This document shows, piece after piece, positions 17,632 to 57,361 of a stretch of DNA of 64,000 nucleotides. The stretch lies in the NCBI GenBank assembly GCA_963702845.1, contig OY969763.1, forward strand, positions 4,192,001 to 4,256,000. Reading direction: 5' to 3'. A model generated the notes under the pieces. The model was given only the letters and a program-made list of their open reading frames with translations, did not search any database and had not been told where the DNA came from. This DNA comes from an uncultured Verrucomicrobiae bacterium (GTDB lineage: Bacteria > Verrucomicrobiota > Verrucomicrobiia > Limisphaerales > Palsa-1400). Within the stretch, counting starts at the first letter, position 1. Each line of letters begins with the position of its first letter. The position numbers and the translations under genes were made by a program.

Positions 17632-18378
17632 ATGAGCCAACTTTCCAACCAGGTTGCTGTTGTTACCGGAGCCGGTCGTGGTATCGGTCGCGCTATTGCT
17701 TTGAAATTCGCAGCTGAAGGCGCGGACATCGTCTGCGTCTCGCGCAGCGCGGAAAACGCTGAGAAAGCCGCCGATGAAGTCCGCGCCACTGGCCGCAAAG
17801 CCTGGGCGCATGCCGTCGATGTTTCCGATACTGCTACTGTCGCGGCGGCCGGCGAAAAGATTTTAGCCGAAGCCGGCAAAGTCGACATCCTCATCAACAA
17901 CGCCGGGGTCACCCGCGACGGCTTGCTCATGCGCATGAGCGACGCCGATTGGGACGCAGTGCTCGACACCAATTTGAAAGGCGCGTTTTCTTTTACGAAA
18001 GCGTTCACCCGCGCGTTCCTCAAACAACGTTCCGGCCGCATCATTAATATCGCGAGCGTCATCGGCCTCATCGGCAATGCCGGCCAGGCCAACTACAGCG
18101 CCAGCAAAGCCGGCCTGATCGGTTTCACCAAAGCGTGCGCCCGCGAAATGGCATCACGCGGCGTGACCGTTAACGCCCTCGCTCCCGGTTTCATCGAAAC
18201 CGACATGACCAAAGTCTTGAAGGAAGAAATGCGCGCCGAGTTGTTGAAGCACATCCCGCTGAATTGCTTCGGCCACCCCGACGACATCGCCAATGCCGCG
18301 CTCTTCCTCGCCAGTCCTGCCGCCCGTTATATCACCGGCCAGGTGCTGACCGTCGACGGTGGCATGGTCATGTCCTAG
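17632..18378 (+). CDS. fabG: 3-oxoacyl-ACP reductase
   Basis: TGAGRGIG, NNAGVTRD, GNAGQANYSASK, PGFIETDMT. Confidence 0.95.
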   Translation: MSQLSNQVAVVTGAGRGIGRAIALKFAAEGADIVCVSRSAENAEKAADEVRATGRKAWAHAVDVSDTATVAAAGEKILAEAGKVDILINNAGVTRDGLLMRMSDADWDAVLDTNLKGAFSFTKAFTRAFLKQRSGRIINIASVIGLIGNAGQANYSASKAGLIGFTKACAREMASRGVTVNALAPGFIETDMTKVLKEEMRAELLKHIPLNCFGHPDDIANAALFLASPAARYITGQVLTVDGGMVMS

Positions 18379-19028
18379 AAGTGAAACGTATACGTCGCCA
18401 CCGCCGCGTGGTTGTTGGCCATACTCCCATTCAAAAACACCCCGAGATATTTGTAACCGATTCCAATCTCTTGATTTGGCAATAGCAAATACCGCACGCC
18501 TCCCATCGCTTGAACCGCGCCGTCGATTGCGCTGCTACTTCTATTCCCACCCATCACGTTATCGATCGCGTGCTCGTGCAACCCGCTAAAAACCCCGCCG
18601 CCACCGCCACCCACATAAAACGACCATCTCGGCGCTGGATGACAAACCAACACGCCATTCACAATAAACGGCAGTTGAAAATAATACCCTTGCAGGGCCG
18701 CCGACCGCGCGACGCCACCAGCCATGCCTGAAATGTTATTCAGCGAATTCACCAACGCGCCCGTTTCAAACTCCAGCCCGACACTCGTCTTCCCCATCAA
18801 CGGCACCATGTATCCGACTGACGCAGTGCCACGCACGCCCGGATGCGTCGAAAGCGTTCCTGAAATACCACCGACCGACGCTGTGATATTCTGCATGACA
18901 TTCGCGCCCGCGTTCGCATGCACATAAAACCCCAGCAACGAATCATCACGCTGCTGCTGCGCGCGAGCGCTCGCAGCCAGGGCGAGAGCCGTAAGAGTGG
19001 TTGCGGCAAAAACATTCAGCAATTTCAT
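18375..19028 (-). CDS. Outer-membrane beta-barrel protein (OmpA-like membrane domain), paralog 1
   Basis: Signal peptide, alternating beta-strands, FYVGGGGG, C-terminal YTFHF. Confidence 0.8.
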   Translation of the reverse strand: MKLLNVFAATTLTALALAASARAQQQRDDSLLGFYVHANAGANVMQNITASVGGISGTLSTHPGVRGTASVGYMVPLMGKTSVGLEFETGALVNSLNNISGMAGGVARSAALQGYYFQLPFIVNGVLVCHPAPRWSFYVGGGGGGVFSGLHEHAIDNVMGGNRSSSAIDGAVQAMGGVRYLLLPNQEIGIGYKYLGVFLNGSMANNHAAVATYTFHF

Positions 19029-19298
19029 AGATGCTCCCTCCCTGTTGGTATGTTGCCCGTATTAAAACCCGATGCGGCATTCAAAACCGCGTAAGCCACT
19101 CTCAAACCAAATTCAGTCCTGTCAACCAGCCGTTCAGGTGCGGGATTCGACTATGCCTCCTGTCCAGAACGCCAGTTTCCAACCGGCGTTGTCCCCTGAT
19201 CGGCCTTCCAGCCCGCTTGTCCCAACATGAATCCGCCGCAATGTTTACATCATTGCGGCGGCTCTTTATTTGAGATTTGAAATCTGAAATTTGAAATC

Positions 19299-19955
19299 TT
19301 AGAAATGAAACGTATACGTCGCCACCACCGCGTGGTTGTTGACCGTATCCGTATCTTTCACAAACACCGCGAGATACTTGTAAGCGATGCCGACCTCGCT
19401 GCACGGATTCAACTGATAACGCGCGCCGCCCATCGCCTGGAAAGCGGCGTCCGTCTCCTCGCTATCCGCGTCCACTTCCACGTCATTGATGCGATGGAAA
19501 TGCAACCGGCTGTAAACCCCACCGCCGCCGATGCCCGCATAAAACGTGAACCTCGGCACCGCATGACAAACCAACACGCCATTCACCAGGAACGGCAATT
19601 GATAATAATAACCATCTAGATCATCCGTCGTAGTGATGCCTGGCGACGTTATCGTGCGCTTATCCAACGCGTTCACGATTGCTCCCGTTTCAAACTCAAG
19701 TCCAATACTCGTCTTCGACGCCAGCGGCACCGTGTAGCCGACGCTGAGCGAGATGCGTTCACCGACATCGGTTTTCAACTTCGCTTCCGCATCGCCGAAC
19801 GACGCTTTGATGTCGCCCAAAATATTCACACCGATGCCCGCGTTCGCATAAAACCCATTCAACGGATCTTTATAATAATTGGCCTGCGCCCGAGCTGATA
19901 CAGCCAGTGCGAGAGCAGTGAGAGCGATTGCACTAAATACATTTAGAAGTTTCAT
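19299..19955 (-). CDS. Outer-membrane beta-barrel protein, paralog 2
   Basis: Same signal start (MKLLNVF), GLEFETGA, QLPF.VNGVLVCH and identical NNHAxVATYTFHF end. Confidence 0.8.
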   Translation of the reverse strand: MKLLNVFSAIALTALALAVSARAQANYYKDPLNGFYANAGIGVNILGDIKASFGDAEAKLKTDVGERISLSVGYTVPLASKTSIGLEFETGAIVNALDKRTITSPGITTTDDLDGYYYQLPFLVNGVLVCHAVPRFTFYAGIGGGGVYSRLHFHRINDVEVDADSEETDAAFQAMGGARYQLNPCSEVGIAYKYLAVFVKDTDTVNNHAVVATYTFHF

Positions 19956-20147
19956 TGGTAGTAATCCTGTTCGTTGTTTGTTCCAGACCGATGCGCGTAT
20001 CAAATGCGCGGCCACCATTCTCAAACTTTAGCGGCACCTGTCAACCAACCAAATTGTGGCCACAGAAGCAGACGTTGGTCAGGTCGCGCCCATTCACCAA
20101 AAATGTCACAGCAAACGGCCAGAATCCCACGTAATCGCGCCTCGCAC

Positions 20148-20480
20148 AAAAAATTTCATCGGAATGTTTCTACTTCCGGCAACTTCCTTCTACTTCCGGC
20201 AATTAGTTGCCAAGTGGAGAAAATTAGGAGAAGGAAATGTTTCTACTTTTACCAAAGGCCGAACGTCGGCCTCGCAACGCGGACTCCGGAAGAAAATATC
20301 ACGGAAAGTCGCACATTGCCCCACATTCCCGCACATTGTCACACTTTGGTGGGAATTAAGTTGCACATTGGTGCAGTTTTCAAAGAACGAACCCGGGAAA
20401 GTCGCACATTCGCGACCGCCCCTAGGGCCGGTAAGGACCGACAGCCGAAGGAATTATAGCGTGAAGCTACGGCGTGTCAA
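20148..20480 (-). repeat. Dispersed non-coding element family A, copy 1
   Basis: Aligns end to end with 50847-51175; TTGACA-N16-TATAAT on the minus strand (20480-20453), hairpin, GTTCTTTGAAAA (20388-20377), two 10-bp-phased arrays. Confidence 0.85.
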
Positions 20481-20576
20481 CGTCGCGTAGCAAACACCTC
20501 AGGGTTTCCCGAAGATTTGCCTGGATCCTTGCCTCATCCGCGCTTGAACCCTCTCGACTGACTCCCAAAGGGATAT

Positions 20577-20900
20577 TTACACAGGCTGTGATGGAGAAGA
20601 ACGCGCTGCCTGCGCCATTTCAGCAACAATCCGCCCGAAGTCCTCCAAACCGGTGGATGGAACGATGACGTTGTCGCGGCGACCGTTGACATCCTCGGTG
20701 ATGCGCAGAAAACGACCGCGAGGATTTTCCTTCAGGGTGAGTATGAAGGTCTTGCGCTCGATCTGGATAGTTACCCTTTGAAGGGTGTCCTCCTCAACAT
20801 ACGGCTTTTGGGGTCCCGATTGATAGGAGCGTTCAGCACTATGGGAACGCGCCTTATAAGCGGGACGCAATGAGGAGTTTGAGTGTTCGTTCGATAGCAT
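20577..20900 (-). CDS. PUR-alpha-like (DUF3276) ssDNA/RNA-binding protein
   Basis: IQIERKTFILTLKENPRGRFLRITEDVNGRRDNVIVP matches the PUR repeat. Confidence 0.85.
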   Translation of the reverse strand: MLSNEHSNSSLRPAYKARSHSAERSYQSGPQKPYVEEDTLQRVTIQIERKTFILTLKENPRGRFLRITEDVNGRRDNVIVPSTGLEDFGRIVAEMAQAARSSPSQPV

Positions 20901-21083
20901 ATAGCCCTTCGCTTTTTGTCTCCGGTATTCTCTTGACAGCAGGAACGTAACTGTGAGATCGCACAAGGGCTATCACTCAAATGAGTGACTATGTGGCGGA
21001 TTCCACAGGTGGATTCTCATTCAAGAAAGCAGCATTTCAGCATGCTAAGGGCCCGGTTAAACCGGCCTGAACTGCAAACCGCT

Positions 21084-22590
21084 CTACGGTTTCCCCTGCG
21101 CATCGGAGATCTTTGTTCCCACCTCAGAAGCAAGTTTGACTACTGCAGCATTAGGATCTTCCTTCAGCGCTACAATTGCCGAAAGAGCGGATTTTGCATC
21201 AGGACCAATTTCCCCCAGAACTCCAAGCGCCTCCCGTTGGGTTTGGGAATAGTAATAGGATTGGTATTTTGACCGGTCCAATGCGTCGACGAGAATTGGC
21301 ACGACAATCTTAGCATCGCGATGTTTGAGCCAATGGATTTTTGCAGCGTCAACCCGAACACTGACATTGTCATCGCGAAGCAGAGCGCCTTCATTTAAGT
21401 CGGCGGTTGGGCGTTTTACAGCGACATCCGCCAACAATCCGGCGGCTTGAATACGATAGTAATCCTCGCTGTAGCCCAACCCATCGCGACAAACTTTAAC
21501 GCACTTTTCTGTCGGATAACCAAGGTCGAGCATGGCAGGAAGAAGCAGCATGCGGATAAAAATGCGTTTCGATTTTTTTTCGGCGAAGGTCCGCAGGATC
21601 GACAAAGCTTTGGCCCGTTCCGGATCCTTTAGATTCATTTTTTGGAACAACCCCGCGGCTTGAAGAATATTCTCCTCGTGCTCGTTGACACCCTGGCCGC
21701 CCTCGTCACCCCCCGAAGAGAATGACGCAAACTGGTTCAACACCGTTCCCAAAGCTTTGAAAACCATATCGAACGATTCTTTAGAATCCCTTTTCCAGGT
21801 CCCACAGCGCACTGGAACAATTGATAATCACAGCGCTGCTGGTCGAGGAAGACCGCGCCAGTTTTAGAGCCGACACGACTTCGGGACTATTTACGCCAAG
21901 TTCGCCCAATGATCGCGCGGCCCGCGGCTGCATCTGCGTCAATGGGCTTTTTAACGCCGCCAGCAGCACTTTCGTCGTGCGCGGGGAAGGCGGCTTAACC
22001 GTACCGGCGATCATAACAATGGAGTAACTTGCGAAGTTGGTAGGATAATTTTCAAAAACCTCGTCGAGCCGGTTACAGATATCCGCATCGAAGCCGATTT
22101 CCGAAAGCGCCATCATCACACCATTCACTTCTGTTGGGTTGTTTTCGTTCAGAATCGCAACGAGCTCGGGCACAGCCGGACGAGCGCTCGGGCCAAAACT
22201 TTCCAACACCTGACAAGCCGTCCAGCGACGTTCGGTCAACAGGTTTGGGTCGGGAAAAAACGAAAAACGTTTGGCGACTTTGGGCCATTTAGCTTTTATC
22301 CAAAGCAAGGTGCGAACCGACGCGCTGTTTTTTTCCCGCAACACAGAACGCAGTAAAGGGATGGCCTCCGGCCCGAGTTGCCGGATTTTAAGTAGATCAG
22401 GATTAGCCCAGCGTTCTGAGAGCGTTATCTTTGAAAGACGATCCAGCGCCGGGCGCATCACATCGTCGGGAGTCGGTCGGAAAAACAGGTATCCTCCCAA
22501 AATCAACACCAGCACAGCCGCGACAATCCACCACAGCCGACGAGAACGAACTTGAATTAACGATGATCCACCCGCCACTTCAGCGCACAA
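21084..22590 (-). CDS. Membrane-anchored HEAT-repeat protein, one apparent frameshift at about 21790; start uncertain
   Basis: LGPEAIPLL, GPSARPAVPELV, LGEIGPDAKSAL HEAT repeats; two ORFs join as ALWDLEKDSKESF. Confidence 0.75.
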
Positions 22591-22687
22591 TTACAGCTTG
22601 GATTACGAATTGCAAGCTACAGGTGGCACTCACCTTGATCCGAAACAAAACGGCTCGGTCCATGGTGTTGAAATATTTCAACAAGCT

Positions 22688-22772
22688 ATCAGAGCATCCC
22701 GTTTTCTGTCTCTCGAATTCCGGCAAGGACCGGCGGTCGAAAGGATTATAAAGTGCATCGGCGGCTCGTCAA
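22688..22772 (-). promoter_or_regulatory. Partial family A element (promoter plus first hairpin) upstream of the HEAT-repeat gene
   Basis: TTGACG-N16-TATAAT (22772-22745) followed by CCGGT-cctt-GCCGG hairpin, as in copies 1 and 2. Confidence 0.7.
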
Positions 22773-22980
22773 TGTAGTGTAGGTAACCAGGAGTTAACTG
22801 CCACCACTCTTTTTATTCGCATTGTCTCACGCCTCCGCCGTCTTGACTCTCAACCCTCAACCATCAACTCAGTCGGGGTTCAGCAGTAGGACAATTGGTC
22901 GTGGACATCGCAGCCCACGAGCAATCGTTTATCTTTGACAGACCGACCACAAGGCAGTGCAATCACCTCAGGAGGAACCT

Positions 22981-23730
22981 ATGCGATTTCGAAAGCTTTT
23001 TATCCGGCGCGGATTCACCGCAATCGAACTAATGGTTGTTATCGGCGTAATCGCGGTTCTCACGGCGATCTTACTTCCAACGTTGGCTCGTAACCGCGAA
23101 AAGTCGAAACGCATCCAATGCGTCAGCAACCTGAAACAAATCGGTACTGCCTATCGAATTTGGCCCGAGGTTTCGGACAAGTATCCAGCGCAGACTGAAT
23201 TCAGCCGAGGCGGATGGCAAAATTACCTGGAACAGACAAACTCCGGCCAATATTGCTGGACGAACTATGCGCTCATGCGAAACGAGCTCGGGGGGTCACC
23301 ATTGATTCTCACCTGCCCTGCAGACGAACGTCAACCGGCGCCAAACTTCGGCACCCTCAGAAACACGAATGTCTCTTACTTTGTCGGAGCCGATGCAAAC
23401 GAGAATTGGCCGTTGTCGATATTGGGCGGCGACCGCAACCTCGCGCGCGGTCGGACACCAAAGGAGGACTATGGCTTTTCTAAGCCAAACGGCGAAGGCA
23501 ATGATGTTTGGATAAAAACAAACTCCGCGATCGACCCGATTTGCTGGTCGCTCAAGATGCATTCCCACGGTGACACAAACGGAGCGGGCAACATTCTGTT
23601 AGGCGACGGCAGCGTTCAGCAATTGTCCTCGGCCAACTTCCGCACCGACTTTCAAACAAACGCCGCGGTGGCGTCGGGATACAATCCAGCTGAACAACAT
23701 CAGATTTCATTTCGGCTAATCTTCCCTTGA
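22981..23730 (+). CDS. Prepilin-type N-methylation domain protein (PVC pseudopilin with H-X9-DG-like C-terminal motif)
   Basis: RRG|FTAIELMVVIGVIAVL..ILLP, CVSNLKQIG, H...GNILLGDGSV. Confidence 0.9.
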   Translation: MRFRKLFIRRGFTAIELMVVIGVIAVLTAILLPTLARNREKSKRIQCVSNLKQIGTAYRIWPEVSDKYPAQTEFSRGGWQNYLEQTNSGQYCWTNYALMRNELGGSPLILTCPADERQPAPNFGTLRNTNVSYFVGADANENWPLSILGGDRNLARGRTPKEDYGFSKPNGEGNDVWIKTNSAIDPICWSLKMHSHGDTNGAGNILLGDGSVQQLSSANFRTDFQTNAAVASGYNPAEQHQISFRLIFP

Positions 23731-23748: not shown

Positions 23749-23934
23749 ATCCGTGTTTCATCAGTGGCTAAAAACCCACCCAGCAACCTTCGTGCCTTGG
23801 CGTCGTATTGGCTGAATTTAGTGCAGAAAAAGTGCTGCTTCTTTCCCTCCTTTCCTTGGCTTCCCTACATTTTTTTACGAGTAGCACCTTTATGTCATCA
23901 TCACTCGCATTATGCGAACGATACAACATAAAGA
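23749..23934. repeat. Dispersed non-coding element family B, copy 1
   Basis: Aligns with 55522-55708; shared TTTAGTGCAGAAAAAGTGCTG and 46-bp CTTTATG...CATAAAG inverted repeat. Confidence 0.85.
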
Positions 23935-24345
23935 ATACAGTAAGCCGTTAACCGAAGGTCTCGCTCAACAAAGCGCGGCTCACCCAACCCTTGTCTGCTA
24001 CTCGCGACCACCCGTAGCTGCAAAGTGTCTCGGTTCGTCATCACTCAGTCTCAGGACGTCATCACACGTCCTCGGTTGTCATCACTTGTCACGACTTGTC
24101 ATCACATTTGCCCAATAGAAATAAATTCCCATAACCACCCTATGTACACCGAAACGATTATTAACGAGCCAATTACAACCGCCGCACCATCTGAAACGAA
24201 CTGCGTCGTTGCCACCATTTCAACTCCGTCCATTGTGCCAGCTCCGGAGTTACCAAAGCCTTCCACTTGGAGTTTGAAGTTTGAAGGTTCCCCGTCCTCA
24301 CTTTCACTTTCACTTTACGCGCACAGCCGCTATGTTGCCCCTCCT

Positions 24346-27860: not shown

Positions 27861-28892
27861 ATGACGGCAAAAAAACTTCTCGGTATCGGCAAGCAAACTT
27901 TCAAATGTTTCGGTGAAGACAAGGCGATGCGCCTCGCCTCTTCGCTCGCGTATTACGCTATTTTTTCGATCGGCCCGTTGATGTTCATCATGCTCATCAT
28001 CGCCGGGGCGATCTTCGGCGAGGACACGGTCAAACAGACATTGCATCAGCAAATCAGCAGCATGATGGGCGAGAAAGCCGGGAGCACAATTGAATCGATG
28101 ATGAACGCGCGCAAGATTGGTGGCAGCGCTGTCACGACGATTATTGGAATGGTGACGCTGGTGTTTGGCGCGACCGGGGTGTTCGGCGAGTTGCAGGATG
28201 CGTCTGAACACGATCTGGGGCGTGAAAGCCAAACCGAACGCCGGAATTTGGACTTATTTGCGCAATCGGTTTTTGTCGATGAGCATGGTGCTTGGTCTGG
28301 GTTTCTTGCTCCTGATTTCAATGGTGTTGACCACGGTGGCGTAGGCGGCATCAAATAGTGTTGAGCGCGCATGTTCCATGTTCCACAGGCGATGGTGTGC
28401 GGGTTTAAGCGCGTCGGTCAGTTTCGTTGTCGTCGCAATTTTCTTCGCGTTGCTCTTCAAGTATTTGCCTGACGTGAAGGTTCGATGGAGACCGATTTGG
28501 CTGGGCGCGATCGTGACAGCGGCCTTGTTCACTATTGGTAGATATTTTTTGAGCATGTATCTGGGCAAGCAGGCGACGAGTTCGAGCTATGGCGCTGCAG
28601 GTTCTGTCGTCGTGATATTGCTGTGGGTGTATTACGCGTCGGTGATAATGTTCCTTGGCGCGGAGTTCACGCAAGGCTTATGCGAACGAAACGGGAGGCG
28701 ATGCAACCGGACGAATACGCCGTGCGGACCGACCAGGACGCCAACGGCCAACCGAAACGCCGAGGGCAAGGTGAGCGCGAGAAGGTTGATGTTCGACCGG
28801 CAAGCTGTCGCACCAGTCGCGCCGATGGTTGCATTTGCTGTTGGCTTGGGCGCAGCGTTCGGGTTCCGGCGGCAAGCGCTAATTTGCTGTAG
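27861..28892 (+). CDS. YihY/BrkB-family inner-membrane protein, several apparent frameshifts; end uncertain
   Basis: DKAMRLASSLAYYAIFS, GATGVFGELQDA, LFKYLPD, YGAAGSVVVILLWVYY...GAEF. Confidence 0.85.
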
Positions 28893-33455: not shown

Positions 33456-33848
<393 letters not shown>

Positions 33849-33875
33849 CGCAAACCAAAAACTAAAACTACCAAG

Positions 33876-35720
33876 ATGAAGAAATATCTAGCACTCGCAA
33901 CGATTCTGGCTGGCTTAACCATCGGCGCATTCGCCCAAGCGCCGGCAGACACCAATGCCGCTCCACCCGCTGCCGCGCCAGCTTCAAATAACGACCCCGG
34001 CGGCGGCGCCACGGGAACGATTGGCGACGTCGGTGGCTCCGGCGGATCTTATAGTTATCCTGGGTTTCAAGTCAGTGCTCCTACGCCGCTAAGCGACGAC
34101 GACAAAAAGGACACGAATAAAGTCGCCGCGTTCAACGATGCCACTAAAGCTGCGGCAGATTATACGGCGCAAACCAAAGTTGAACCGCTCGCGGTGAAAC
34201 TGGCTGACGCAGTCGGTCACAACCGCATCTCGATCAACTTCGTCTGGGTGCTGATCACCGGCTTCATGGTCATGTTCATGCAAGCTGGTTTCGCGCTGGT
34301 TGAAACCGGTCTTTGCCGCGCCAAAAATGCCGCGCACGTCATGACGATGAACATGCTGATCTATCCGCTCGGCATGTTGGGTTTTTGGTTGTGCGGCTTT
34401 GCATTCATGTTCGGTGGCGTTGGTACGCCCGGCGCCGGAACGCTCGGTTCCTGCACGAGCTTGAACCATGAAGTCACCTGGACGCTGTTCGGAAAACCTT
34501 TCGGTATCATCGGTTGGAAAGGCTTCTGCCTCTCCGGTGATACCTACGATGTCGGTTTGTTCACCCTGTTCCTCTTCCAGATGGTGTTCATGGATACCAC
34601 TGCAACGATTCCCACTGGAGCAGCTGCAGAACGTTGGAAGTTCTCCTCCTTCTGCCTCTACGGCTGTTTCATCGGCACCGTTATGTATCCCTTATTCGGC
34701 AACTGGGTCTGGGGCGGCGGCTGGTTGTCGCAGCTCGGTGTGAATTTCGGTTTAGGCCACGGCCACGTGGATTTCGCAGGGTCATCAGTTGTTCACTTAC
34801 AAGGAGGTGTCATTGGATTGATCTTCGCGTGGCTGATCGGCCCTCGTCTCGGCAAATACAATAAAGACGGCAGCATCAACCCCATGCCGCCGCACAACAT
34901 TCCTTACGCGATTCTTGGCACGTTCATTCTCGCGTTCGGTTGGTTCGGATTTAATCCTGGTTCAACTCTCGCCGGCACGGACATGCGCATGGCCGTCGTT
35001 GCAGTGAACACGATGCTCGCTTCTGCCTCGGGTTGCATGGCGTCGGTTGTCTGGATGTGGTGGTTCCGCACCAAAAAACCAGATCCGAGCATGGCCTGTA
35101 ACGGCATGCTCGCCGGCCTGGTCGCGATCACTGCGCCTTGCGCATTCGTCACCGCCGGTGGCTCATTAATCATTGGGTTGATTTCCGGTATCCTTGTCGT
35201 CGAATCAGTCTTCTTCTTCGACAAAATCAAAATTGATGATCCGGTTGGCGCGATCTCCGTCCACGGAATCAACGGCGCTTGGGGTTGCCTCGCGCTTGGA
35301 TTGTTCAGTGACGGCACCTACGGGCAGGGCTGGAATGGTGTGCACTGGTTCAAATTGCTCGACGGCACCTACAAAATTCTGGATCCGTCCGCCGCACCGA
35401 AAGGTGCGATCGAACAAGGCATCCTCGGCACCTTCTACGGTGGCGGCATGAGCCAATTCTGGGCCGAATTCGTCGGCGTCCTCACTTGCTTCATCACACT
35501 GTCGATCCTGTCGCTGATTGTTTACGGACTTGTTGCTCTGATAACAAAGGGCCAGCGCGTTTCCCCCGAAATGGAATTGGACGGTTTGGACGTTCCGGAA
35601 ATGGGTGTCGCTGCTTACTCCGGTATCGTGATGGACAAACAATCTGAAACTCCGATGTCGAAAGGCTACGGATCGTCACCTCTACCAGCAAAAGCTCCGA
35701 AGGATTCGGTCAATGCTTGA
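33876..35720 (+). CDS. amt: Ammonium transporter (long form)
   Basis: FMQAGF, AERWKF, DFAGSSVVH, WFGFNPGS, DDPVGAISVHG; both pore His residues present. Confidence 0.95.
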   Translation: MKKYLALATILAGLTIGAFAQAPADTNAAPPAAAPASNNDPGGGATGTIGDVGGSGGSYSYPGFQVSAPTPLSDDDKKDTNKVAAFNDATKAAADYTAQTKVEPLAVKLADAVGHNRISINFVWVLITGFMVMFMQAGFALVETGLCRAKNAAHVMTMNMLIYPLGMLGFWLCGFAFMFGGVGTPGAGTLGSCTSLNHEVTWTLFGKPFGIIGWKGFCLSGDTYDVGLFTLFLFQMVFMDTTATIPTGAAAERWKFSSFCLYGCFIGTVMYPLFGNWVWGGGWLSQLGVNFGLGHGHVDFAGSSVVHLQGGVIGLIFAWLIGPRLGKYNKDGSINPMPPHNIPYAILGTFILAFGWFGFNPGSTLAGTDMRMAVVAVNTMLASASGCMASVVWMWWFRTKKPDPSMACNGMLAGLVAITAPCAFVTAGGSLIIGLISGILVVESVFFFDKIKIDDPVGAISVHGINGAWGCLALGLFSDGTYGQGWNGVHWFKLLDGTYKILDPSAAPKGAIEQGILGTFYGGGMSQFWAEFVGVLTCFITLSILSLIVYGLVALITKGQRVSPEMELDGLDVPEMGVAAYSGIVMDKQSETPMSKGYGSSPLPAKAPKDSVNA

Positions 35721-35794
35721 TTAACCACCCCACCCTCCCGGTTGCGCTAAGTAAAACCAAATGGCGCAACCGGGGTCTGGGGCGGAGGTAAAAT

Positions 35795-36118
35795 ATGAAA
35801 ATGTTTGAAATATTCCAAATGTTCGGCGCAACGATCGTGGGCGGCGCAATCGGTTGGGGATTCGGCCTGCTCCAACAAGCCGCCACCCGCCACAATGAAC
35901 GACTCCAAACCACCGGCAAACTTAACAAGGTCTGGTCGCTGATGCCCGGCTCGATGACGCGCGTCGCGTTTCTCCTGGTCGCGCTCGCACTCGTTCAGGT
36001 CGTTTGCCCGTTATTTTTCACGAGCACTGCGCAATGGGGTGTCTCGGCTGGCGTGATCGCCGGTTACGGCTGGACGCTGTATCAGAGCATGCGCGCGCGC
36101 CTCGCCGCCCGTGTTTAG
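35795..36118 (+). CDS. Small hypothetical membrane protein (about 3 TM)
   Basis: GGAGG before ATG; hydrophobic segments; operon position. Confidence 0.6.
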
Positions 36119-36155
36119 TCCACTCCACTTTTTAACCTCAACAAAAACTACATTA

Positions 36156-36374
36156 ATGAGCACTCCAAAGAGTGTAATTGATAATGCAAAGAAACAGGGC
36201 GCGAAGATGGTCGACGTGAAGTTCGTCGACACCTTCGGCACCGCGTTCTTGTTGAAAGGCGACGTGTTCACTGCCGACTTTTTGGAGATGTGGATCAGCC
36301 ACAAACGCAAAGAGCACGACGCCCTGCGTTTGCGCCCACATCCCTACGAATTCTTCCTCTACTACGATGTGTAG
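36156..36374 (+). CDS. Mini-GlnA: in-frame fusion of the first 29 and last 43 residues of glutamine synthetase (small protein or deletion remnant)
   Basis: 70 of 72 aa identical to the termini of glnA at 42338-43751; all catalytic regions absent. Confidence 0.75.
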
Positions 36375-36396
36375 TTCGTAGTTCAGGCGGAGTGCT

Positions 36397-36431
36397 AAAC
36401 GCCCCGACGCTGTTCGTCGGGGCGTTTCTTT
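36397..36431 (+). terminator. Intrinsic terminator after mini-glnA
   Basis: AAACGCCCCGACG-ctgtt-CGTCGGGGCGTTT then CTTT. Confidence 0.8.
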
Positions 36432-36446
36432 AATTTAATACCCCCA

Positions 36447-37850
36447 ATGAATTACAGCGTTAGCCCCTGGATGATCCTGCCGTTCGGGCTGTTGCTCGGC
36501 ATGATCGCGCTCGCGCCATTGTTCTTCTCGAGCTGGTGGGGCAAACATTACATCAAAATCGCCGTCGGCCTCGCAGCGGTAATGGTCCTCTACTATTTCT
36601 TCGGCTTGGGCGCAAAAATGCGCATCGTCGAAACGGCGCACAATTACATCAGCTTCATCGTTTTTATCGGGGCACTGTTCGTTGTTTCCGGTGGAATTCA
36701 CATCCGGGTGAAAGGCGAAGCAACGCCGATGGCCAACGTGCTCTTCCTTGCCATCGGGGCACTGGTGGCAAACGCCCTCGGAACAACCGGCGCATCCATG
36801 TTGCTGATCCGGCCCTGGATTCGAATGAACCGCCATCGCATCACCGGCTATCATGTCGTGTTCTTCATCTTCATCGTCTCGAATGTCGGCGGCTGCCTGA
36901 CCCCTGTTGGCGATCCGCCGTTGTTCATTGGTTACCTCATGGGCGTGCCCTTCTGGTGGGTGACAAAGCAATGCTGGCCGATGTGGCTGACAGGCGTCGG
37001 CGTTCTCCTTGCGATGTTCTACGCGCTCGACCTGCGCAATTACAAACATGCCAGCAAAGACGTTCGCGATCATCTCACTGCCCACGAAGAATGGCGCTTC
37101 GACGGCTTGCGCAATTTGATTTTCCTCGCGGTCATTTTCGGCGCTGTCTTTATCGAACGCATTCCGTTCCTGCGCGAAGCCTTGATGCTTGGCGCCGCTG
37201 CGGCTTCGTACCATTACACTCACGACACCGTTCACGAATCCAACGAGTTCACCTTTCACCCGGTCAAAGAAGTTGCAGTTCTGTTCCTCGGGATCTTTGC
37301 CACAATGATGCCAGCACTCGATTGGTTGCAGGCAAATGCCCGGCTTTTCGGCACTCCGACACCAACATTGATGTATTTCGGCTCGGGCGCGCTCTCGAGT
37401 GTTTTGGATAATGCGCCCACCTACTGGAGTTTCTTGAGCGCTTCCATCGCAACTTTGGTGAGTCCGGAAACCGTGGCCGGTGTTAAATCGGTCATCGCCT
37501 CCGGCGGCACTCACGCAATGGCAGGTTCGGATGTCGCTCAAACGTTCGCGGTGTTGCAGAAATTTCATCCCGTTGAACTCGCTGCCAAAAACCTCACGAC
37601 CGAACACATCCAAGTCGCGAATCTGCTAGGGAACCCGTCGAGCAAGCTTTACGTCATCGCCGTGACCGTCGGCTCGGTCTTTTTCGGTGCGAACACTTAT
37701 ATCGGCAATGGCCCAAACTTCATGGTCAAAGCCATCGCCGACCAACAGAAAGTGACGACACCGGACTTCCTCAATTACATTTTCAAATACACGCTGCCCT
37801 TCATGGCCCCGATGTTGCTACTGGTCTGGTGGCTATTCTTCAGACAGTGA
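36447..37850 (+). CDS. Putative sodium:proton antiporter (ion-transporter superfamily)
   Basis: GTTGASMLLIRP, SNVGGCLTPVGDPPLFIG, LSSVLDNAPTY, GANTYIGNGPNFMVKAIA; many TM helices. Confidence 0.8.
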   Translation: MNYSVSPWMILPFGLLLGMIALAPLFFSSWWGKHYIKIAVGLAAVMVLYYFFGLGAKMRIVETAHNYISFIVFIGALFVVSGGIHIRVKGEATPMANVLFLAIGALVANALGTTGASMLLIRPWIRMNRHRITGYHVVFFIFIVSNVGGCLTPVGDPPLFIGYLMGVPFWWVTKQCWPMWLTGVGVLLAMFYALDLRNYKHASKDVRDHLTAHEEWRFDGLRNLIFLAVIFGAVFIERIPFLREALMLGAAAASYHYTHDTVHESNEFTFHPVKEVAVLFLGIFATMMPALDWLQANARLFGTPTPTLMYFGSGALSSVLDNAPTYWSFLSASIATLVSPETVAGVKSVIASGGTHAMAGSDVAQTFAVLQKFHPVELAAKNLTTEHIQVANLLGNPSSKLYVIAVTVGSVFFGANTYIGNGPNFMVKAIADQQKVTTPDFLNYIFKYTLPFMAPMLLLVWWLFFRQ

Positions 37851-40365: not shown

Positions 40366-40710
<345 letters not shown>

Positions 40711-40743
40711 CCCTCAACCACAGACTTTCTACTAATCAACCAC

Positions 40744-42249: not shown

Positions 42250-42337
42250 TTCCACCGTAGCCCTAAAGGTAGGGCGCTCGCTTCCGCGCGCGCCCTACCT
42301 CGACGGGCGAAAGCGGAAAACAAAACAGACAAACAAC

Positions 42338-43751
42338 ATGAGCACTCCTAAAAGCGTAATTGATAGTGCGAAGAAACAGGGTGCGAAGATGGTTGACGTG
42401 AAGTTCGTCGATACCTTCGGCACCTGGCAACATTTCACAGTCCCGATGGGCGAACTGACCGAAGAAGTCTTCGAAGAAGGTTTCGGTTTCGATGGTTCCT
42501 CAATCCGCGGATGGAAATCGATCGAAGCCTCCGACATGCTCGCCATGCCTGACCCGGCGACCGCCTTCATCGATCCTTTCTGCGCTGTCCCGACTCTGTC
42601 GCTGACCTGCACCATTGCCGAAACAGGAACGAAGGAAGCTTACAATCGTGACCCTCGTGGCATCGCACAACGTGGTGAAGCCTATCTCAAATCCACCAAG
42701 ATCGCCGACACCGCAGTGTTTGGTCCCGAAGCTGAGTTCTTCATCTTCGACAACGTCCAATATGATTCCAAAGCCAACGGCACCTTCTACTCGGTCGATT
42801 CCGAAGAAGGCGATTTGGAACACCGGCCGCGATGAAATGCCGAACCTCGGCTACAAGATTCGCTACAAGGAAGGTTACTTCCCTGTCGCGCCGACCGACA
42901 CTCAGCAAGACATCCGCACCGAGATGTGTTTGGTCATGGAACAACTCGGGATCAAGGTGGAACGTCAACACCACGAAGTCGCCACTGCTGGTCAGGCTGA
43001 AATCGATTTTCGTTTCGATACGCTGGTCAAGACCGCCGACACGATGATGCTTTACAAATACATCATCAAGAACGTCGCACGGAAACACGGCAAGACCGTC
43101 ACCTTCATGCCCAAGCCGCTCTTCGGTGATAACGGTTCCGGCATGCACACGCATCAATCGTTGTGGTCCAAGGGTAAGCCGTTGTTCGCTGGTAAAGAAT
43201 ATGCCGGCTTGAGCCAGATGGCCCTGTACTACATCGGCGGCATTTTGAAGCACGCGAAAGCCCTGTGCGCGATCTGCAATCCGACGACGAACTCCTACAA
43301 ACGCTTGGTTCCTGGCTACGAAGCTCCGGTTAACCTCGCTTACAGCGCGCGTAATCGTTCCGCTGCGATTCGTATCCCGACCTTCAGCGAAAGCCCGAAA
43401 GCCAAGCGCATTGAGTATCGTCCGCCGGATCCGGCTGCGAACCCTTACCTCGCCTACACCGCCCTGCTCATGGCAGGTCTCGATGGCGTGTTGAACAAGA
43501 TTGAACCGGGCGAACCGCTGGACAAAAACATCTACGAACTGCCTCCGGAAGAACTGAAGAAGGTTCCGAATGTCCCCGGCAGCCTCGGCGAAGCGCTGGA
43601 TTGTTTGGAGAAGGACAATGCATTCCTGCTCAAGGGCGACGTATTCACCGCTGACTTCCTGGAAATGTGGATAACTCACAAGCGCAAGGAACATGATGCG
43701 CTGCGTTTGCGTCCGCATCCTTACGAATTCTTCCTCTACTACGATGTGTAG
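42338..43751 (+). CDS. glnA: Glutamine synthetase type I, one apparent frameshift at about 42810
   Basis: [66 protein letters not shown] (adenylylation Tyr, GSI-beta). Confidence 0.97.
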
Positions 43752-50846: not shown

Positions 50847-51175
50847 GAAAAATATCATCGGAATGTTGCAACCTCCTGCAACTTCCGCCTCCTTCCTGCA
50901 ATTAGTTGCAAAGCGGAGCGGTTTTGTAGCAGAAAATCCTGCAACTTTTGTCAAAGGCCGAACGTCGGTCTCGCATCACGCAGAAAATATCACGGGAAAG
51001 TCGCACATTGTCCCACATTCCCGCACATTGTTACACTTTTGGTGCGGATTAAGTCGCACTTTTAGTGCGGTTTTCAAAAAACGAACCGGGGAAAGTTGCA
51101 CATTCTGGACGGCCCCCCAGTGCCGGTAAAGACCGGCGTACGAAGGGATTATAATATGAAGCAACAGCATGTCAA
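50847..51175 (-). repeat. Dispersed non-coding element family A, copy 2
   Basis: Homologous to 20148-20480; TTGACA-N16-TATAAT (51175-51148). Confidence 0.85.
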
Positions 51176-51185
51176 TTACGTGTAA

Positions 51186-51250
51186 TAACCCCGAAGGAGT
51201 TTAGGCACTCAGCCCAGCGGTTGCGAGGAACGAGCTACCCTGGGTAAAAA
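51186..51250. repeat. REP-like palindromic sequence
   Basis: CCCAGCGGTTGC...GCTACCCTGGG imperfect stem. Confidence 0.4.
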
Positions 51251-51533
51251 CCAAAACGAAGTTTCACGTTCGCGGAGCGGCGACGAAGGAGTTAAAATGT
51301 CTTCTGTTCGCAGGCCATTGGTGCAGCGATTTCCTGAAAACAAGACACAGTATGGAATGTAGCCAACATAGACGCTGCGCCATTGGTTTCTCTAGCTTCT
51401 CGACATGGCGAAAAACAGAACCGACCCGAGCTCGAACGATGAGTTCGCAGGCAAGAAATGGTTAATATGACTTTAGCATTAATTCACCCCTTTTGGTCGC
51501 TCCGCGCGGACCGCTTTTGATTAAACCAATTCT

Positions 51534-54500
51534 CTACTGCGCCTGGATTCGATAAAACTTCGCGGGCGGAACCGGCGTAATCGTGTCACTCAACTGTTGA
51601 ACATCTCCCGTCCCAAAAGTTGAGTACACTGAGCGCCAAAATACCGGTGGATTCAGGTTAGTGGCCATCAACAAGGAATAGAGCATGCGCGGTTGCGTTT
51701 GAATGTTGAACTGAAGCACATTCGAAACGAGCGCTGATTGAATCGTTGGTTGCACAATCGGCAAAATGTTCACCGTCACGCTCGTGCTGACGCCATTAGG
51801 ATTGTCACCATTGTATGCGGTGAAATAAGCATTATAAGTTCCGGGGTTCGTCCACGTTGTGTACGTCGTCCAATTTGCATTCGTCGGTCCTGAATCGAAA
51901 GACCACCTCACGGCCGAGGCGTGGCCATTCACAATCCCATTAAAGGTCAGCCCATGAGCTGCAACCGAGTTCGTGCCGAGTGGCGTTTGAATGCTTACCG
52001 ACAACGCGCCGACTAAATCGCTATCGATGACTTCATCACATCCCATCGACGGCGTGCTCGTCCAGGTCTCCCCATCCATGTCCGTCCCACTCACGTACAA
52101 AGCACTGCCGACCCCACGACCGGGCGATGTTGCAGAAAGGTGGAAGTTGTCGACGAAGACCGGGGCAAACGTCGCTGAGTTAATGTTACCTGCACCAGTT
52201 GGCAAAGGCTGCGTGCAACAATAGTTTAACGTCGAAGCAGCGTTATAATTGTCGAGGCCAAAGCCAAACGGGTAATCGTCCCAATTTCCAATGACGATGC
52301 AGTTGTAAGCACTGCAATTGAAAAGCCCGGCACCAAACGATGAGCTGGGTGATCCGAACCACCGCAAATAATTCTGCGACACCGTGCAGTTGATGACGCC
52401 GCAGGATTGAGCGCCGCCGCCCTGCAATTCTGCGACATTGCCGGTGACGTACGAATTCATGAGGGTTCCAGAAAAAATGCCCGCTCCCGTAACCGCGTTG
52501 TTATTCGTCAGGATACAATTGATCACCATTGCACTTGTCGCACCATACACTCCTCCTCCCGACGTCGCAGTCGCGGGCGCGCCAGAGGAACGCGTGGCGC
52601 CATTGCGTAGCGTAAATCCCATCAACTTCGCTCCTCCGCCAACCCACGCGCATCGCACGGCCAACGGACCGTCGGCAACGTATAGTGGTGGAAGTCCTGC
52701 GCCGGACGGGTCGAACATTCCTTCGATGATCGTCGAAGCGCTGCCATGAACGCTTGTGATGGTGACGGGCTTGTCAATGGTAACTCGATTGGTGATGACT
52801 CCGTCAACCGATCGGCCGCCTGTCGCATACACGCCGTTAGTTACAACAATGAAATCGCCCGGATCTGCAGCATCAATTGCGTCCTGAATCGTATTTGCCG
52901 CAGTCGCCCACGATGTAAAAGGGCTCACCGGGTTTGCGCAGTTAACATCCACGCAGCGGACTACTATTTGCGCCACGCTGCTGGTTGCCATGCCGAACGC
53001 ATTGCTTACAACAACCTGGTATGTGCCTGCAGACTGCGGATCCAAACTGACAATGAGATTAGTCGTGCTGGAATTTGCGAAAAATGGTCCGTCTAGCAGT
53101 GGCACGCCATTCAAAGTCCAGATGCCGGTCAGCGGAAATTGCCCAGTCGCCGGAACGCTCACACTCAGTTTGCCCGGTGCAATCGCTTGTAGCGAAATCT
53201 GCGGGACGATAACAGGCTGCGGCACCCACTCACTGCAACCGATTGATGGCGGATTGCCCCAAGGTCTTCCGTCGATGTCATTGCCAAACACCACCGCGTT
53301 CGTGCCTGCACCGATACATGGTGACCCGGTTGCTAGATGGAGTCCGTCCGGTAACAACTTCGGATCAACAGCAATATTTCCGGTTCCCGCCGGCAATGGC
53401 ATCGTGTCCGAATAACTGATCGTGTCCGAACTGTAGTTCGAGATCGCGAACGCATACGAGGTATTGTTGTAGATGATGCAGTTGATTGCGGTCGCTGCGT
53501 AAACCGCCGCACCGGCCTGCGAAAATCCTCCGCGACTCACGTTATTCAGTACCTGTACAATTGACGAGAAATCGGCCTTGAGCTGCAGAGCCATATCCCT
53601 GCGTTGAATTGCCAATCAGCGCGCAATTGGTTAACGAACACAAATCGGTGCCCCCTGCAGCACTTGAGGCATAATTGCTCGTCACCAAACACTGTCGCAG
53701 AATACAAGACGAAGCCGCTCCGCCATACGTTCCTGCGGTGTTCCCGAGGAGCTGACACGACAAAAGCTTCACCTGATAGGCTGCCCCACCCCAATAACCG
53801 GCAGAATTGGTCACTAAACTGCAATTAAATACCGTTGCTGAATTTGAACTCCCCCACACCGCTCCGCCATTGATCGTTCCGTAATTGGGCGGCGAACTGA
53901 ATGTGCGAGTCGCCCCTGCTGTCAGTGTGAACCCACTCAAAACGGCGGTATTTGTCAGCCAAACACAACGAAGCGCTGAAGGCCCGTTCGTCGCTCCACC
54001 ACCTTGAATGGTCGTGAAAGCCGGTCCGTTGACACTTTGCACAATTATCCCTTTATCAACCACTACACGGTTGGTGATGATACCGTCCGTCGATTTACCT
54101 CCGCTCGCATAAATGCCGTTCGTGACAAAAATCAACTCCCCAGCGGCTGCCGCGCTGATGGCATCCTGAATGTTCGTCGCTGCAGTATTCCACGTCGTGT
54201 AGGGCGCGTTCACGTTTGTCGATGCCGGATCGACATAATGCGCGACCACATTCACCACAGAACTGGTGACTGCTCCGCTCGAATTGCTCGCGACCAGTTG
54301 ATAACCTCCGACGTCATTCAACCCAATCCCGAGTGCAACTAGATTGGTCGTCTGTGTGCCTGCAAAATGGCCGTTGTCCTGCAGCAAAACCCCATCCTTC
54401 AACCATCCAAAATTCAACGCAGACTGTCCGCTGCTGTTTGCCGTAATTGTGAATCCAACCGGATCACTCGCGAGAGCCAGTCGCGGCATTGCGACGATAG

Positions 54501-55398
54501 GATTCGGCTTCCACTCAGCACATCCGACCGACGGCGGATTCGCCCACGCGTTTCCGAAGATATCCGTTCCAAAAGTGATGTTCGTTCCTGCGCCAATGCA
54601 GGGCGAACCGCTGGTCAAATGCACCCCGTCGACAAACAACTGTGGTGCATTCGTAAAATTTCCCGGCCCAGCGGTAACCGATGACACACAACAATAGGCT
54701 ATCGATGAGGAGAAGTTAGGTGATGAATTGTAGTAAATGATGGAGTTAATTGCGGCACAATTTTGTAAACCCTCGGAATTCGTCACGACGGTACAGTTCC
54801 TCAACACACACTGATAAGCAGCGTAGGTGAGGTTTGCATTCGTAGCTATCAACGAGTTCCGGACCGAGGCCTGATACACCGCACCATTGGCGCTGTTATT
54901 TGATATAATCACAGAATTTGCTACCACCGCCAAATTCGATGACGCTCCATAAACCGCCCCCCCGAACAAGGACTGGCCCGATCCCGTTCTGGTCGCCCCC
55001 CACTTCAACGTGAACCCAATCAACGCCGCATTATTTGTTATCCACGCACACCGCACTGCACTCGTGCCATTTGTCGGGCCCCAACCCTGGATCGTTGTCA
55101 CAAACGGCCCGCTCGCACTCTGCACCGTAATGGCCTTATTCAACGATACGCGATTCGTAATCACGCCATCCATCGACCTGCCGCCGCTCGCATAAACGCC
55201 ATTCGTCACCAAAACAACGTCACCGTCGCTCGACGCATCAATAGCATCCTGGATATTCGTCGCCGCCGTATTCCAATCGACAAACGGCGCAACAGGGTTC
55301 GTCCCGTTTGCATCGACAAAAAAGGTGTTAGCACTGGCGTTGAGGGCAAGTAATAGACATCCGGCCGACAGGAAAGTTCTTTGGATAAAAGCCCGCAT
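51534..55398 (-). CDS. About 1,290-aa secreted protein with three beta-helix-like repeat modules, Ig and PKD-like domains; one apparent frameshift at about 53553
   Basis: Three copies of VD...N...P...W.TAA..IQDAI.A...G....VTNG.YA.GG.S.DG.ITNRV; ORFs join by removing one G (VNCTVLNNVSRG); ends FYRIQAQ. Confidence 0.82.
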
Positions 55399-55521: not shown

Positions 55522-55708
55522 CGTCTGTGTTTTATCCGTGGCTAAAAACCCGTTCAGCAATCTTCATGCCTTGGCGCCTTAGCGGTTAGATTTAGTGCAG
55601 AAAAAGTGCTGTTTCTTTCCCTGTCTTCCCTCCTTTCCCTACATTTTTTGACACGTAGCTACTTTATGGCATCATCGGTCGTGTTATGCGATATATGCAA
55701 CATAAAGA
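55522..55708. repeat. Dispersed non-coding element family B, copy 2
   Basis: Homologous to 23749-23934. Confidence 0.85.
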
Positions 55709-56152
55709 CAACGCGGGGATTCTGATTCCCGCACCGAACCAAGTGACCCACGACAGTTTTATGTCGATGGTGACTCCCGCTGGCTTGGTACGCACGCCTG
55801 CCCAATTTCGTCCATTTTCGACCGACGGGGGTGCCCACTTTCGTCCATTAACATCCACTTTCGACCAACAACGGCCGCCTACGTCCGCTAAAACCCAAAA
55901 AAATTATTTTTACCAAACGCTATGAACACTACTCAACAACTTGAAACCACCGACGTTCCATTCAGACCTTCGCGCCCATTGCGTCCTTCGCGAGACACCT
56001 CTTCGAGCAATTCCGTTGGACGTTGGATGTTGGATTGCGCACCGGACGATCCGGTCGGAAGTTCGACGTTCGCCTTCCCTTCCGCAACACCAACTAACGC
56101 CATCAAAACCGCTACAGTTGACAACCCCGGCTCTCGCGGCAAACTTCCGTGT

Positions 56153-57361
56153 ATGACTCGCAAGCTTTCCGTTTTAGCATTCGCGCTTTGCCTGGCCTCC
56201 TCCGTTCACGCCAATGATTGGCCCAATTGGCGCGGGCCCAATTACAACGGCATTTCGAGCGAGACCGGCTGGACCACAAAATGGCCGGCGGAAGGGCCCA
56301 AGCAGCTTTGGAAGGCGTCGGTCGGGACCGGGTTTTCGTCGATGTCAGTCGCGCGTAACCACGTCTATACGATGGGCAATGCGGCCGACCAGGACACGGT
56401 GTTTTGTTTTGATGCGGCGACGGGCAAGGTCGTTTGGAAACATTCTTACGCCTGCGCGCTCGATCCCAAATATTACGAAGGCGGGCCGAGCGTGACGCCG
56501 ACGGTCGCCGGCAATCGCGTGTTCACACTTTCGCGCAAAGGCGATGTGTTTTGTCTCGATGCCGACACCGGCAAAGTCATCTGGAATAAGAACGTTGCTA
56601 AAGAAGTCGGCGCTGAAATCCCGACTTGGGGTCTGGCCGGTTCGCCTTACTTTGAGAAAGGCCGCATTTACCTGGACGTTGGCTCGGCCGGCACCGCGCT
56701 TGACGCCAAGACCGGCAAAGTGATTTGGAAAAGCGGCCCTGATGCGGCCGGATATTCCACGCCACAACCCGCCACCTTCGACGGCAAAGAAGCGCTGGTG
56801 ATCATGGCCAAAAAGACGGTCGACGCAGTGTCTAAAACTGACGGGCACAAACTTTGGTCCTATCCATGGGAATCGAAGTATGACGTCAACGCCACCCAAC
56901 CGATCATCGACGGCGATAAAGTGTTCATTTCATCGGGCTACGATCACGGTTGCGCATTGCTGAACGTGAAAGGCAACAAACCGGAAAAGCTTTGGGAAAA
57001 TAAAAACCTGCGCAATCACATCAATTCCAGCGTGCTGCTCGAGCAATTCATTTATGGATTCGACGGCGACGCCAATCGCGGTGCCGGTTTTGTTTGCCTC
57101 AATATGAGCAGCGGCGACGTGAAATGGAAAAACGAAGATTACAAAACCGGCTCATTGATGGTGGCCAATCACAAACTGATTATTCTGAGTGATAAGGGCG
57201 AATTGGTCATCGCGGAAGTTTCCCCGGACGGGTTCAAGCCTTTGGCCCAGGCGCAGGTGCTCGGTGGCCGTTGCTGGACGCAACCGGTGCTTGCGAATGG
57301 ACGCATCTATTGTCGCAATGCGAAAGGCGATTTGGTTTGCCTCAACGTCAAACCGTCCTGA
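56153..57361 (+). CDS. PQQ-binding-like beta-propeller protein
   Basis: Signal peptide then DWPNWRGP; repeated CLDA.TGKVIW; WTQPVLANGRIYCRN; TTGACA at 56118. Confidence 0.9.
   Translation: MTRKLSVLAFALCLASSVHANDWPNWRGPNYNGISSETGWTTKWPAEGPKQLWKASVGTGFSSMSVARNHVYTMGNAADQDTVFCFDAATGKVVWKHSYACALDPKYYEGGPSVTPTVAGNRVFTLSRKGDVFCLDADTGKVIWNKNVAKEVGAEIPTWGLAGSPYFEKGRIYLDVGSAGTALDAKTGKVIWKSGPDAAGYSTPQPATFDGKEALVIMAKKTVDAVSKTDGHKLWSYPWESKYDVNATQPIIDGDKVFISSGYDHGCALLNVKGNKPEKLWENKNLRNHINSSVLLEQFIYGFDGDANRGAGFVCLNMSSGDVKWKNEDYKTGSLMVANHKLIILSDKGELVIAEVSPDGFKPLAQAQVLGGRCWTQPVLANGRIYCRNAKGDLVCLNVKPS

Follow-up and report, generated by a model that had tools for sequence, protein, structure and literature searches.

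A dispersed promoter-hairpin-boxA unit with phased 10-bp arrays pairs back-to-back with a second repeat in a Verrucomicrobiota genome

Introduction

What does a consensus promoter followed by a hairpin and a boxA-like motif do where no rRNA follows? The question is raised by a unit of about 330 bp in the window, a 64,000-nt stretch of a 6.03-Mb single-contig genome (G000) from a soil Verrucomicrobiota lineage. A first-pass annotation had described the unit as laid out like an rRNA leader, and indeed no rRNA, tRNA or CRISPR array lies downstream of it; either an undescribed multicopy non-coding RNA or a promoter-carrying non-autonomous element was suggested. We call the unit element A. Our analyses partly support that account: what we find is an undescribed, multicopy, gene-free, promoter-carrying and non-autonomous unit, while a stand-alone RNA is little supported beyond the first hairpin. 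The annotation missed two things: element A is one end of a back-to-back pair, and it is a member of a superfamily of 10-bp arrays found across the genome.

Anatomy of element A

Three copies of element A lie in the window, all on the minus strand. Copy A1 (20148..20491) is a long form made up, in order, of promoter, hairpin, boxA, module 1, a 19-bp palindrome, module 2 and a T-tract; it begins about 12 nt 5' of the -35 box, at 20491, and not at 20480 as first annotated. Its sigma-70 promoter (20453..20480) matches the consensus at 12 of 12 positions, with TTGACA at 20480-20475 and TATAAT at 20458-20453 separated by 16 nt, and the transcript is predicted to start near 20446. The boxB-like 6-bp hairpin (20427..20442), which pairs across copies, is followed on the same strand by the boxA-like GTTCTTTGAAAA (20388-20377), which resembles the boxA words of the genome's own rRNA spacer; these parts were correctly recognised from the start. 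Module 1 (20293..20410) carries copies of AATGTGCGAC at 20401-20410 and 20360-20369 and in tandem at 20308-20347, and ends in a T-tract. Its spacings are 41-43 nt, 22-23 nt and then steps of 10 nt in eight copies from this genome and two from a congener. In module 2 (20148..20257), a further boxA remnant and five decamers spaced at exactly 10 nt (about 20166-20215) are followed by a T-tract (20148-20153). Arrays found next to small-terminase-like genes are homologous to this module (nhmmer E 4e-7 and 4e-6).

The two modules meet at a REP-like 19-bp palindrome (20258..20276), which is a separate dispersed repeat with 26 matches genome-wide (up to three mismatches), the majority outside family A. 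It had been taken for a variant of the element's own hairpin that fits the plus strand, a reading that does not hold. The palindrome shows a sharp edge against unrelated sequence, forms a tandem run at genome positions 4439339-4439490 and also occurs inside REP-like sequences.

Copy A2 (50848..51186) is also a long form, with TTGACA at 51175-51170, TATAAT at 51153-51148 and a second module 2 allele; the homology first noticed between A1 and about 50847-51175 amounts to 79.5% identity over 336 nt (E 6e-77). The partial copy, first placed near 22688-22772, spans 22670..22782 and retains a promoter (TTGACG 22772-22767, TATAAT 22750-22745) and two hairpins, with boxA decayed and the arrays absent. 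A REP-type block (51181..51301, minus strand) abuts the upstream end of A2, and such blocks also lie 5' of four other copies, abutting five A copies in all. Directly 3' of A1 and on the same strand are two tandem outer-membrane beta-barrel paralogues (18375-20024).

Copy number and conservation of family A

Based on BLAST and nhmmer searches, family A has 23 copies in G000, far above chance. Seven are full-length, two have module 1 only, 11 are short forms with module 2 only, and three are partial or divergent; the promoter spacer is 16 nt long in 18 of 20 aligned promoters. All copies are intergenic, and the downstream gene is convergent in 16 of 23, so element A is not the leader of one gene class. 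The copies have no replichore bias (10 leading and 13 lagging, by our own reading of the skew).

The promoter hexamers are selectively conserved. Conservation over 27 aligned copies, drawn from G000, its congener G002 and a close metagenomic relative, reaches 98% in the hexamer columns, compared with 80-81% in the spacer and discriminator (p 6e-5). The rRNA spacer of G000 carries GTTCTTTGACAA and GTTCTTTAACAA, and short A copies carry the boxA ATGATCTTTGACAA, a word shared with that spacer and near the Bacillus subtilis consensus AUGAUCUUUGAAA. The B. subtilis boxA has been shown to bind NusB (PMC13753749), and there is precedent for boxA outside rRNA operons (PMC5725501). Both NusB-family and Rho genes are present in G000.

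RNA or DNA

The selective retention of promoter and boxA, together with the lack of a fixed downstream gene, would suit a small RNA gene in many copies, with a transcript of about 157 or 300 nt that runs from 20446 to a T-tract and, through its repeated words, titrates an RNA-binding protein as CsrB does, the DNA context being incidental. The 5' hairpin adds to this: 95% of its 162 cells are paired, with six double changes that fall in two of six pairs, and its covariation score exceeds 499 of 500 shuffles. The pair count is no better than in shuffles (290 of 500 reach the same count), and we grade the hairpin covariation as weak. G-U pairs, noted at first as favouring the minus strand, do so only weakly (12 G-U cells vs 8 unpaired cells over 27 copies). 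In the arrays, most double changes trace to a single two-allele split; the GGCAA/TGCAA exchange, first read as compensatory, is itself such a split (9 vs 7 of 16 sequences) and not independent covariation. Whole-unit folding z-scores of about -1 to -6 are alike on both strands, and element A has no terminator hairpin in its sequence. Rfam gave no match at the gathering threshold in the window and none at E <= 1 in six loci. The 10-nt period has a rationale at the level of DNA, and a small RNA leaves unexplained both the nine of nine back-to-back pairs described below and the turnover of copies between strains. We therefore regard a small RNA gene as unlikely.

The repeat word changes in concert at separated positions of a module (GTAGAA vs GTTGCA alleles; GTGCG in G000 vs GTGCC in G002). 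A docking protein would explain such concerted change, and we infer that the arrays are probably DNA sites where a protein docks, preceded by a leader that is transcribed. Two observations count against this: spacings of 22-23 nt in module 1 and 33 nt in module 2 do not fit the helical repeat exactly, and 10-nt steps can arise by slippage alone. We rejected a type I toxin-antitoxin repeat, since 18 copies share no small ORF on the opposite strand: reading frames and stops vary from copy to copy, and allele changes are radical.

A superfamily of 10-bp arrays

Element A belongs to a genome-wide superfamily of 10-bp arrays. Arrays with a lag of 10 occur at 156 loci in G000, compared with 2-39 loci at lags of 8, 9 and 11-14; at a lower threshold, the genome holds 209 arrays with 152 different consensus decamers, and an A/T-rich start lies behind just 13 of the 209. 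Of 144 array clusters, 50 have a boxA-like word directed into them, against a random expectation of 3.6% per strand. There are 20 intergenic units of promoter plus boxA: a detected array comes next in 13, and the other seven are, on inspection, family A or its kin. Array polarity derived from alignment was unreliable (30 of 65 neighbours concordant) and was left out of the results.

Other genes and motifs keep company with the arrays. A 123-aa helix-turn-helix (HTH) gene occurs in seven copies in array clusters (genome positions 812791, 877386, 1163814, 1556891, 2104811, 2551163 and 3260533); it has 83 homologues, nearly all on short contigs, and its profile matches are weak and of terminase type only. 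These seven copies adjoin other arrays and never an A copy. Upstream of recA (4978720-4979420) are a palindromic box, a short reading-frame start and three decamer arrays. This recA-type DNA-damage box has 29 sites in G000, several before small-terminase-like genes, and none of the 29 lies within 300 nt of any A copy. The central palindrome of module 2 loosely resembles the recA box, with no match within three mismatches.

Pairing with a second repeat

Each of the two units in the window is bracketed by element A and a second repeat, B, on the opposite strand. Partner end B1 (23815..24134, plus strand) has phased TTTCCC repeats, a related promoter (-35 at 23874), a leader and a decamer array (24056-24115), and an ATG behind it at 24142 reads in frame into thiG. 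The tetramer CTAC ends the phased TTTCCC repeats of B and also precedes the -35 box of A. Behind partner end B2 (55589..55904, plus strand; -35 at 55648), the N-terminal stub of a small terminase is fused in frame to a host PQQ-propeller gene (55922..57361, plus strand); the stub, MNTTQQLETTD, resembles MNTPEQLENTD of the full gene behind a B copy at genome position 1810800. A2 and B2 enclose two minus-strand ORFs of 693 and 618 aa (51534..55398). A1 and the partial copy share B1 in a nested arrangement: three minus-strand ORFs (20577..22590; PurA-like, unknown and HEAT-repeat) lie as inner cargo between A1 and the partial copy, and a plus-strand prepilin-type (N-methyl) ORF (22957..23730) between the partial copy and B1. 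Two of the three inner ORFs have no long match in the incomplete assemblies of G001 and G002, and PADLOC finds no defence system in the cargo (0 of 6), the two ORFs between A2 and B2 included.

The same geometry recurs across the genome. A promoter-family matrix, seeded with a pattern that we shaped on A and B sequences, finds 61 sites in G000 (seven in ORFs) and two in a reversed control. Nine promoter neighbours lie less than 12 kb apart; seven are back-to-back, each consisting of one A and one B, and none is face-to-face. Counting all 23 A and 33 B copies, we find nine upstream-divergent pairs within 6 kb and none in the three other geometries (0.38 expected per geometry). Eight of the 23 A copies take part (p 7e-4 from 20,000 circular shifts), and in all nine A/B neighbours within 6 kb the B copy lies 1-5 kb upstream of its A. 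The other 15 A copies have no B within 6 kb, which counts against a two-ended unit. Pairing was counted in G000 alone, as the assemblies of its relatives are fragmented. None of the 11 Phage_integrase matches in the genome falls inside the seven A-B segments.

Of 33 B heads, four lead to full small-terminase-like ORFs and at least seven to MNT-type stubs about 330 nt downstream; one stands before an operon for prohead protease and capsid, another before a connector-portal-terminase operon. In one stretch of the genome (5239500-5251500), genes for a capsid, a prohead protease, a connector and a portal stand with a large-terminase gene that contains one stop; a B promoter heads each block, and we saw no tail gene there.

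Link to terminase genes

ORFs that recur near arrays include 14 small-terminase-like loci. Eight of these lie within 250 nt of an array, compared with 59 of 1677 control ORFs (p 6e-9), and four have a family promoter upstream. Two of the 14 stand directly back-to-back with an A-like promoter-hairpin-boxA-array unit (short-form model E 4e-7 and 4e-6). None of the 23 A copies itself abuts a small-terminase gene; the link runs through B and through such homologous units. Four of the proteins were compared with the Pfam family Phage_Mu_Gp27; one scored over the cut-off, one below it, and two gave no match. G000 also has eight large-terminase loci, two of them broken, mostly amid host genes among the matches listed; two of two tested carry Terminase_6N/6C, and the closest relatives are B3-like phages at 46-47% identity. 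One viral contig has the layout terS-array-terL, a true Mu-like phage contig has no arrays, and two exact module patterns had no matches in viral contigs.

These terminases invite the reading that A and B are decaying relics of repeated phage satellite or prophage integrations, tolerated or recruited singly as host promoters. The many terminase stubs, the two broken large terminases among eight and the B stubs fused to host genes all fit, as do two of the six copies in the close relative, which are old orthologous insertions. Decay is hard to reconcile with hexamers and boxA that are conserved over 27 copies in two species while spacers drift. Most A copies face a convergent gene from its 3' side and thus cannot serve that gene, we saw no integrase or att context at A copies, and the viral contigs lack the exact module patterns. 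Altogether, we find it quite improbable that A and B are relics.

Relatives, synteny and mobility

A DNA search with A1 matched none of 40 relatives. This reflects a limit of sensitivity, since the promoter pattern is present in both of two congeners (and in none of 28 other family members) and longer queries recover homologues of 70% identity in G002. Among 300 genomes of the order, the promoter-boxA pattern matched one, from another family and with the same layout plus arrays; the pattern is strict, with two matches in G000, so that one in 300 is no measure of absence. A wider contig scan with the promoter pattern returned mostly ordinary promoters of unrelated taxa among the matches listed.

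Copies turn over between close strains. In the close metagenomic relative (contigs L051-L055 and L057), two of six A copies are orthologous insertions, and the flanks of the other four map far apart in G000. Contig L053 joins the upstream flank of the G000 copy at 2988782 to the downstream flank of the copy at 1640679; judged by its sequence, this joint is the product expected of a crossover between two A copies. The empty site that a mobile unit should leave was found once: contig L214 carries an A copy where G000 is empty (27971-27988), with ends blurred by divergence. In G001, a histidine-kinase-like ORF, identified by eye, replaces the whole A2-B2 unit of G000.

The comparison of synteny with G002 took in 140 of its approximately 680 contigs (817 kb). 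Arrays are found at 10 of 49 synteny breaks vs 2 of 96 collinear junctions, and intergenic regions that bear an array or an A copy are broken in 10 of 12 cases vs 60 of 167. Of 72 broken or indel junctions, 5 have an A copy next to them, as against none of 73 clean ones (p 0.028). The background of breakage is high (36%), and for this reason the enrichment does not show cause; the repeats may simply collect in plastic regions, which counts against a role in shuffling.

Several further arrangements deserve mention. At genome positions 697130-697186 two genes are neighbours; in the relative, each follows the T-tract end of an A copy of its own (L051 and L055). The short joint in G000 has no A but a REP-like remnant, and no simple single event accounts for it. 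The window includes rho (45788-47395, minus strand). In G002, a family-A copy points at rho from just 5' of the rho promoter region (L308:306-498), and A2 of G000 points toward rho likewise, 3.4 kb farther upstream; that a promoter with boxA should face rho may be coincidence. The window also holds duplicated blocks (33468-37850 and 40372-43808; repeat families D1, D2 and D8) of 79-91% identity, which by eye resemble nitrogen-regulation and glutamine-synthetase genes.

How the copies move was assessed against known routes. Target duplication is absent at A copies (4.32 vs 4.28 nt, 22 copies), as is a terminal repeat in the one copy examined. A MITE or IS-derived element was rejected on the absence of terminal inverted repeats and target duplication, with one pair showing filled and empty alleles. 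A retro-element (SINE-like or retron) was rejected too: G000, at 89.8% completeness, gives no RVT_1 match, and the promoter lies upstream of the predicted start. The IS110 bridge-RNA idea was also set aside: of 10 IS110 genes in G000, none is at an A copy.

Alternatively, element A could be a passenger of REP/RAYT (HUH) transposition. It would then be a mobile promoter of MITE type, transferred in the form of single-stranded DNA to sites behind a YTAC target, and its pairing with B would follow from a target preference common to both. G000 encodes seven Y1_Tnp genes, an upstream REP block is common to five copies, the -35 box has YTAC before it, the 19-bp palindrome forms sharp joints, and the lack of target duplication is as expected. 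Yet CTAC also closes the phased array at the upstream side of B, and it is conserved although the next 5-6 nt vary; on this account it looks like a binding site rather than a target scar. YTAC is absent from two G002 copies, most A copies have no REP, the right end has no subterminal hairpin, and a target preference would not fix one of four geometries. As a REP or REPIN, a RAYT substrate defined by a GTAG- or CGTC-tagged palindrome, alone or in an inverted doublet, next to a RAYT gene, element A was rejected: the flanks of the seven Y1 genes hold other repeats, and REP blocks merely abut five A copies. A passenger origin thus seems to us very doubtful. At 3392361-3392461 in G000, the REP block found before five A copies also ends at CTACAC, with other sequence behind it, a possible joint.

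Comparison with known systems

We found no description of element A in the mostly open-access literature searched. The PeSL cassettes of phages RB49 and phi1 (PMC2839356) are, like A, dispersed consensus sigma-70 promoters with a stem-loop in variable regions, and recombination between PeSL copies shuffles modules, as we propose for A. PeSLs reside in T4-type phage genomes and end in a Shine-Dalgarno sequence and start codon that drive the next gene, and their stem-loop terminates. Element A has the promoter and stem-loop in variable regions and lacks that ending and that phage setting: it is chromosomal, faces away from its cargo, is paired with a partner end of another kind, and includes 10-bp arrays as well as boxA.

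Leaders of rRNA operons with boxB-boxA antitermination (PMC5725501, PMC13753749) share with A the order of promoter, 5' hairpin and boxA, and the boxA of A, which resembles the genome's own rRNA boxA, lies 3' of the hairpin on the transcribed strand. Unlike an rRNA leader, A occurs in 23 dispersed copies, is followed by phased arrays and has no structural RNA operon downstream. SaPI/PICI satellites (PMC6687093) resemble A and B in having small-terminase-like genes outside full prophages and scattered candidate cognate or pac sites. In A-B units, any link to a small-terminase-like gene runs through B (with Phage_Mu_Gp27 over the cut-off in one of four), the terminases are of Mu/B3 type, and the sites have their own promoter and boxA; neither integrase, att sites nor replication genes were seen in the unit.

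Putative mobile promoters, REPINs and Correia elements (PMC3575422, PMC3733652) are, like A, non-autonomous intergenic sequences with promoter or hairpin that are lineage-restricted and present in some strains but not in others. Element A differs in having no terminal inverted repeat or target duplication and in its modular arrays and fixed back-to-back partner. The TAACTGA sets of Beggiatoaceae (PMC4679880), short direct repeats grouped in some 150-200 intergenic sets within a single genome, recall the arrays of G000; those sets use one heptamer upstream of start codons, whereas G000 has 152 consensus decamers in 209 arrays. By analogy, element A may work like a PeSL cassette, and it recalls satellite terminases with pac-like sites, although it fails the defining tests of both. 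It also fails those of MITEs, REPINs and known RNAs.

A possible two-ended cassette

The explanation that we prefer, and hold with middling confidence, is that element A is the gene-less outward end of a terminase-derived, two-ended cassette that is shuffled by recombination between copies and whose arrays act as docking sites. Such a unit would derive from a Mu/B3-type terminase operon, with the B end heading a small-terminase-like gene or stub and 1-5 kb of variable genes held between two back-to-back promoters. In minimal form it would consist of two divergent related promoters, of which B drives a small terminase and A an antiterminated, array-bearing blank. The unit may then have gained cargo between the promoters, lost its terminase gene to a stub, and multiplied via recombination among copies.

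Spread and cargo exchange would likewise proceed by recombination among A and B copies, with neither a transposase of its own nor an RNA intermediate: a double crossover would swap cargo, and a single crossover would rearrange the chromosome. The promoter would fire and NusB-NusE would load at boxA, so that RNA polymerase gets past Rho, crosses the untranslated arrays and reads on into the neighbouring host gene, mostly antisense. A small-terminase-like or HTH protein, supplied in trans, would dock on the DNA of the arrays. A bolder step, which we put forward tentatively and consider unlikely, is that the copies are self-promoted, antiterminated start sites of packaging, at whose arrays domesticated Mu/B3-type terminases dock and cut and from which they fill head particles with flanking DNA, so that A-cargo-B units and nearby host genes pass from cell to cell and recombine into other A or B copies; if true, this would be an integrase-free, terminase-driven system of gene shuffling.

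If the two-ended cassette holds, three puzzles of this genome would be tied together, namely orphan terminase genes, about 200 phased arrays, and boxA leaders without rRNA, and Nus antitermination would extend to a dispersed repeat. A lineage of soil Verrucomicrobiota would then rearrange its chromosome and swap accessory genes via phage packaging-control cassettes, with no transposase, integrase or reverse transcriptase inside the unit.
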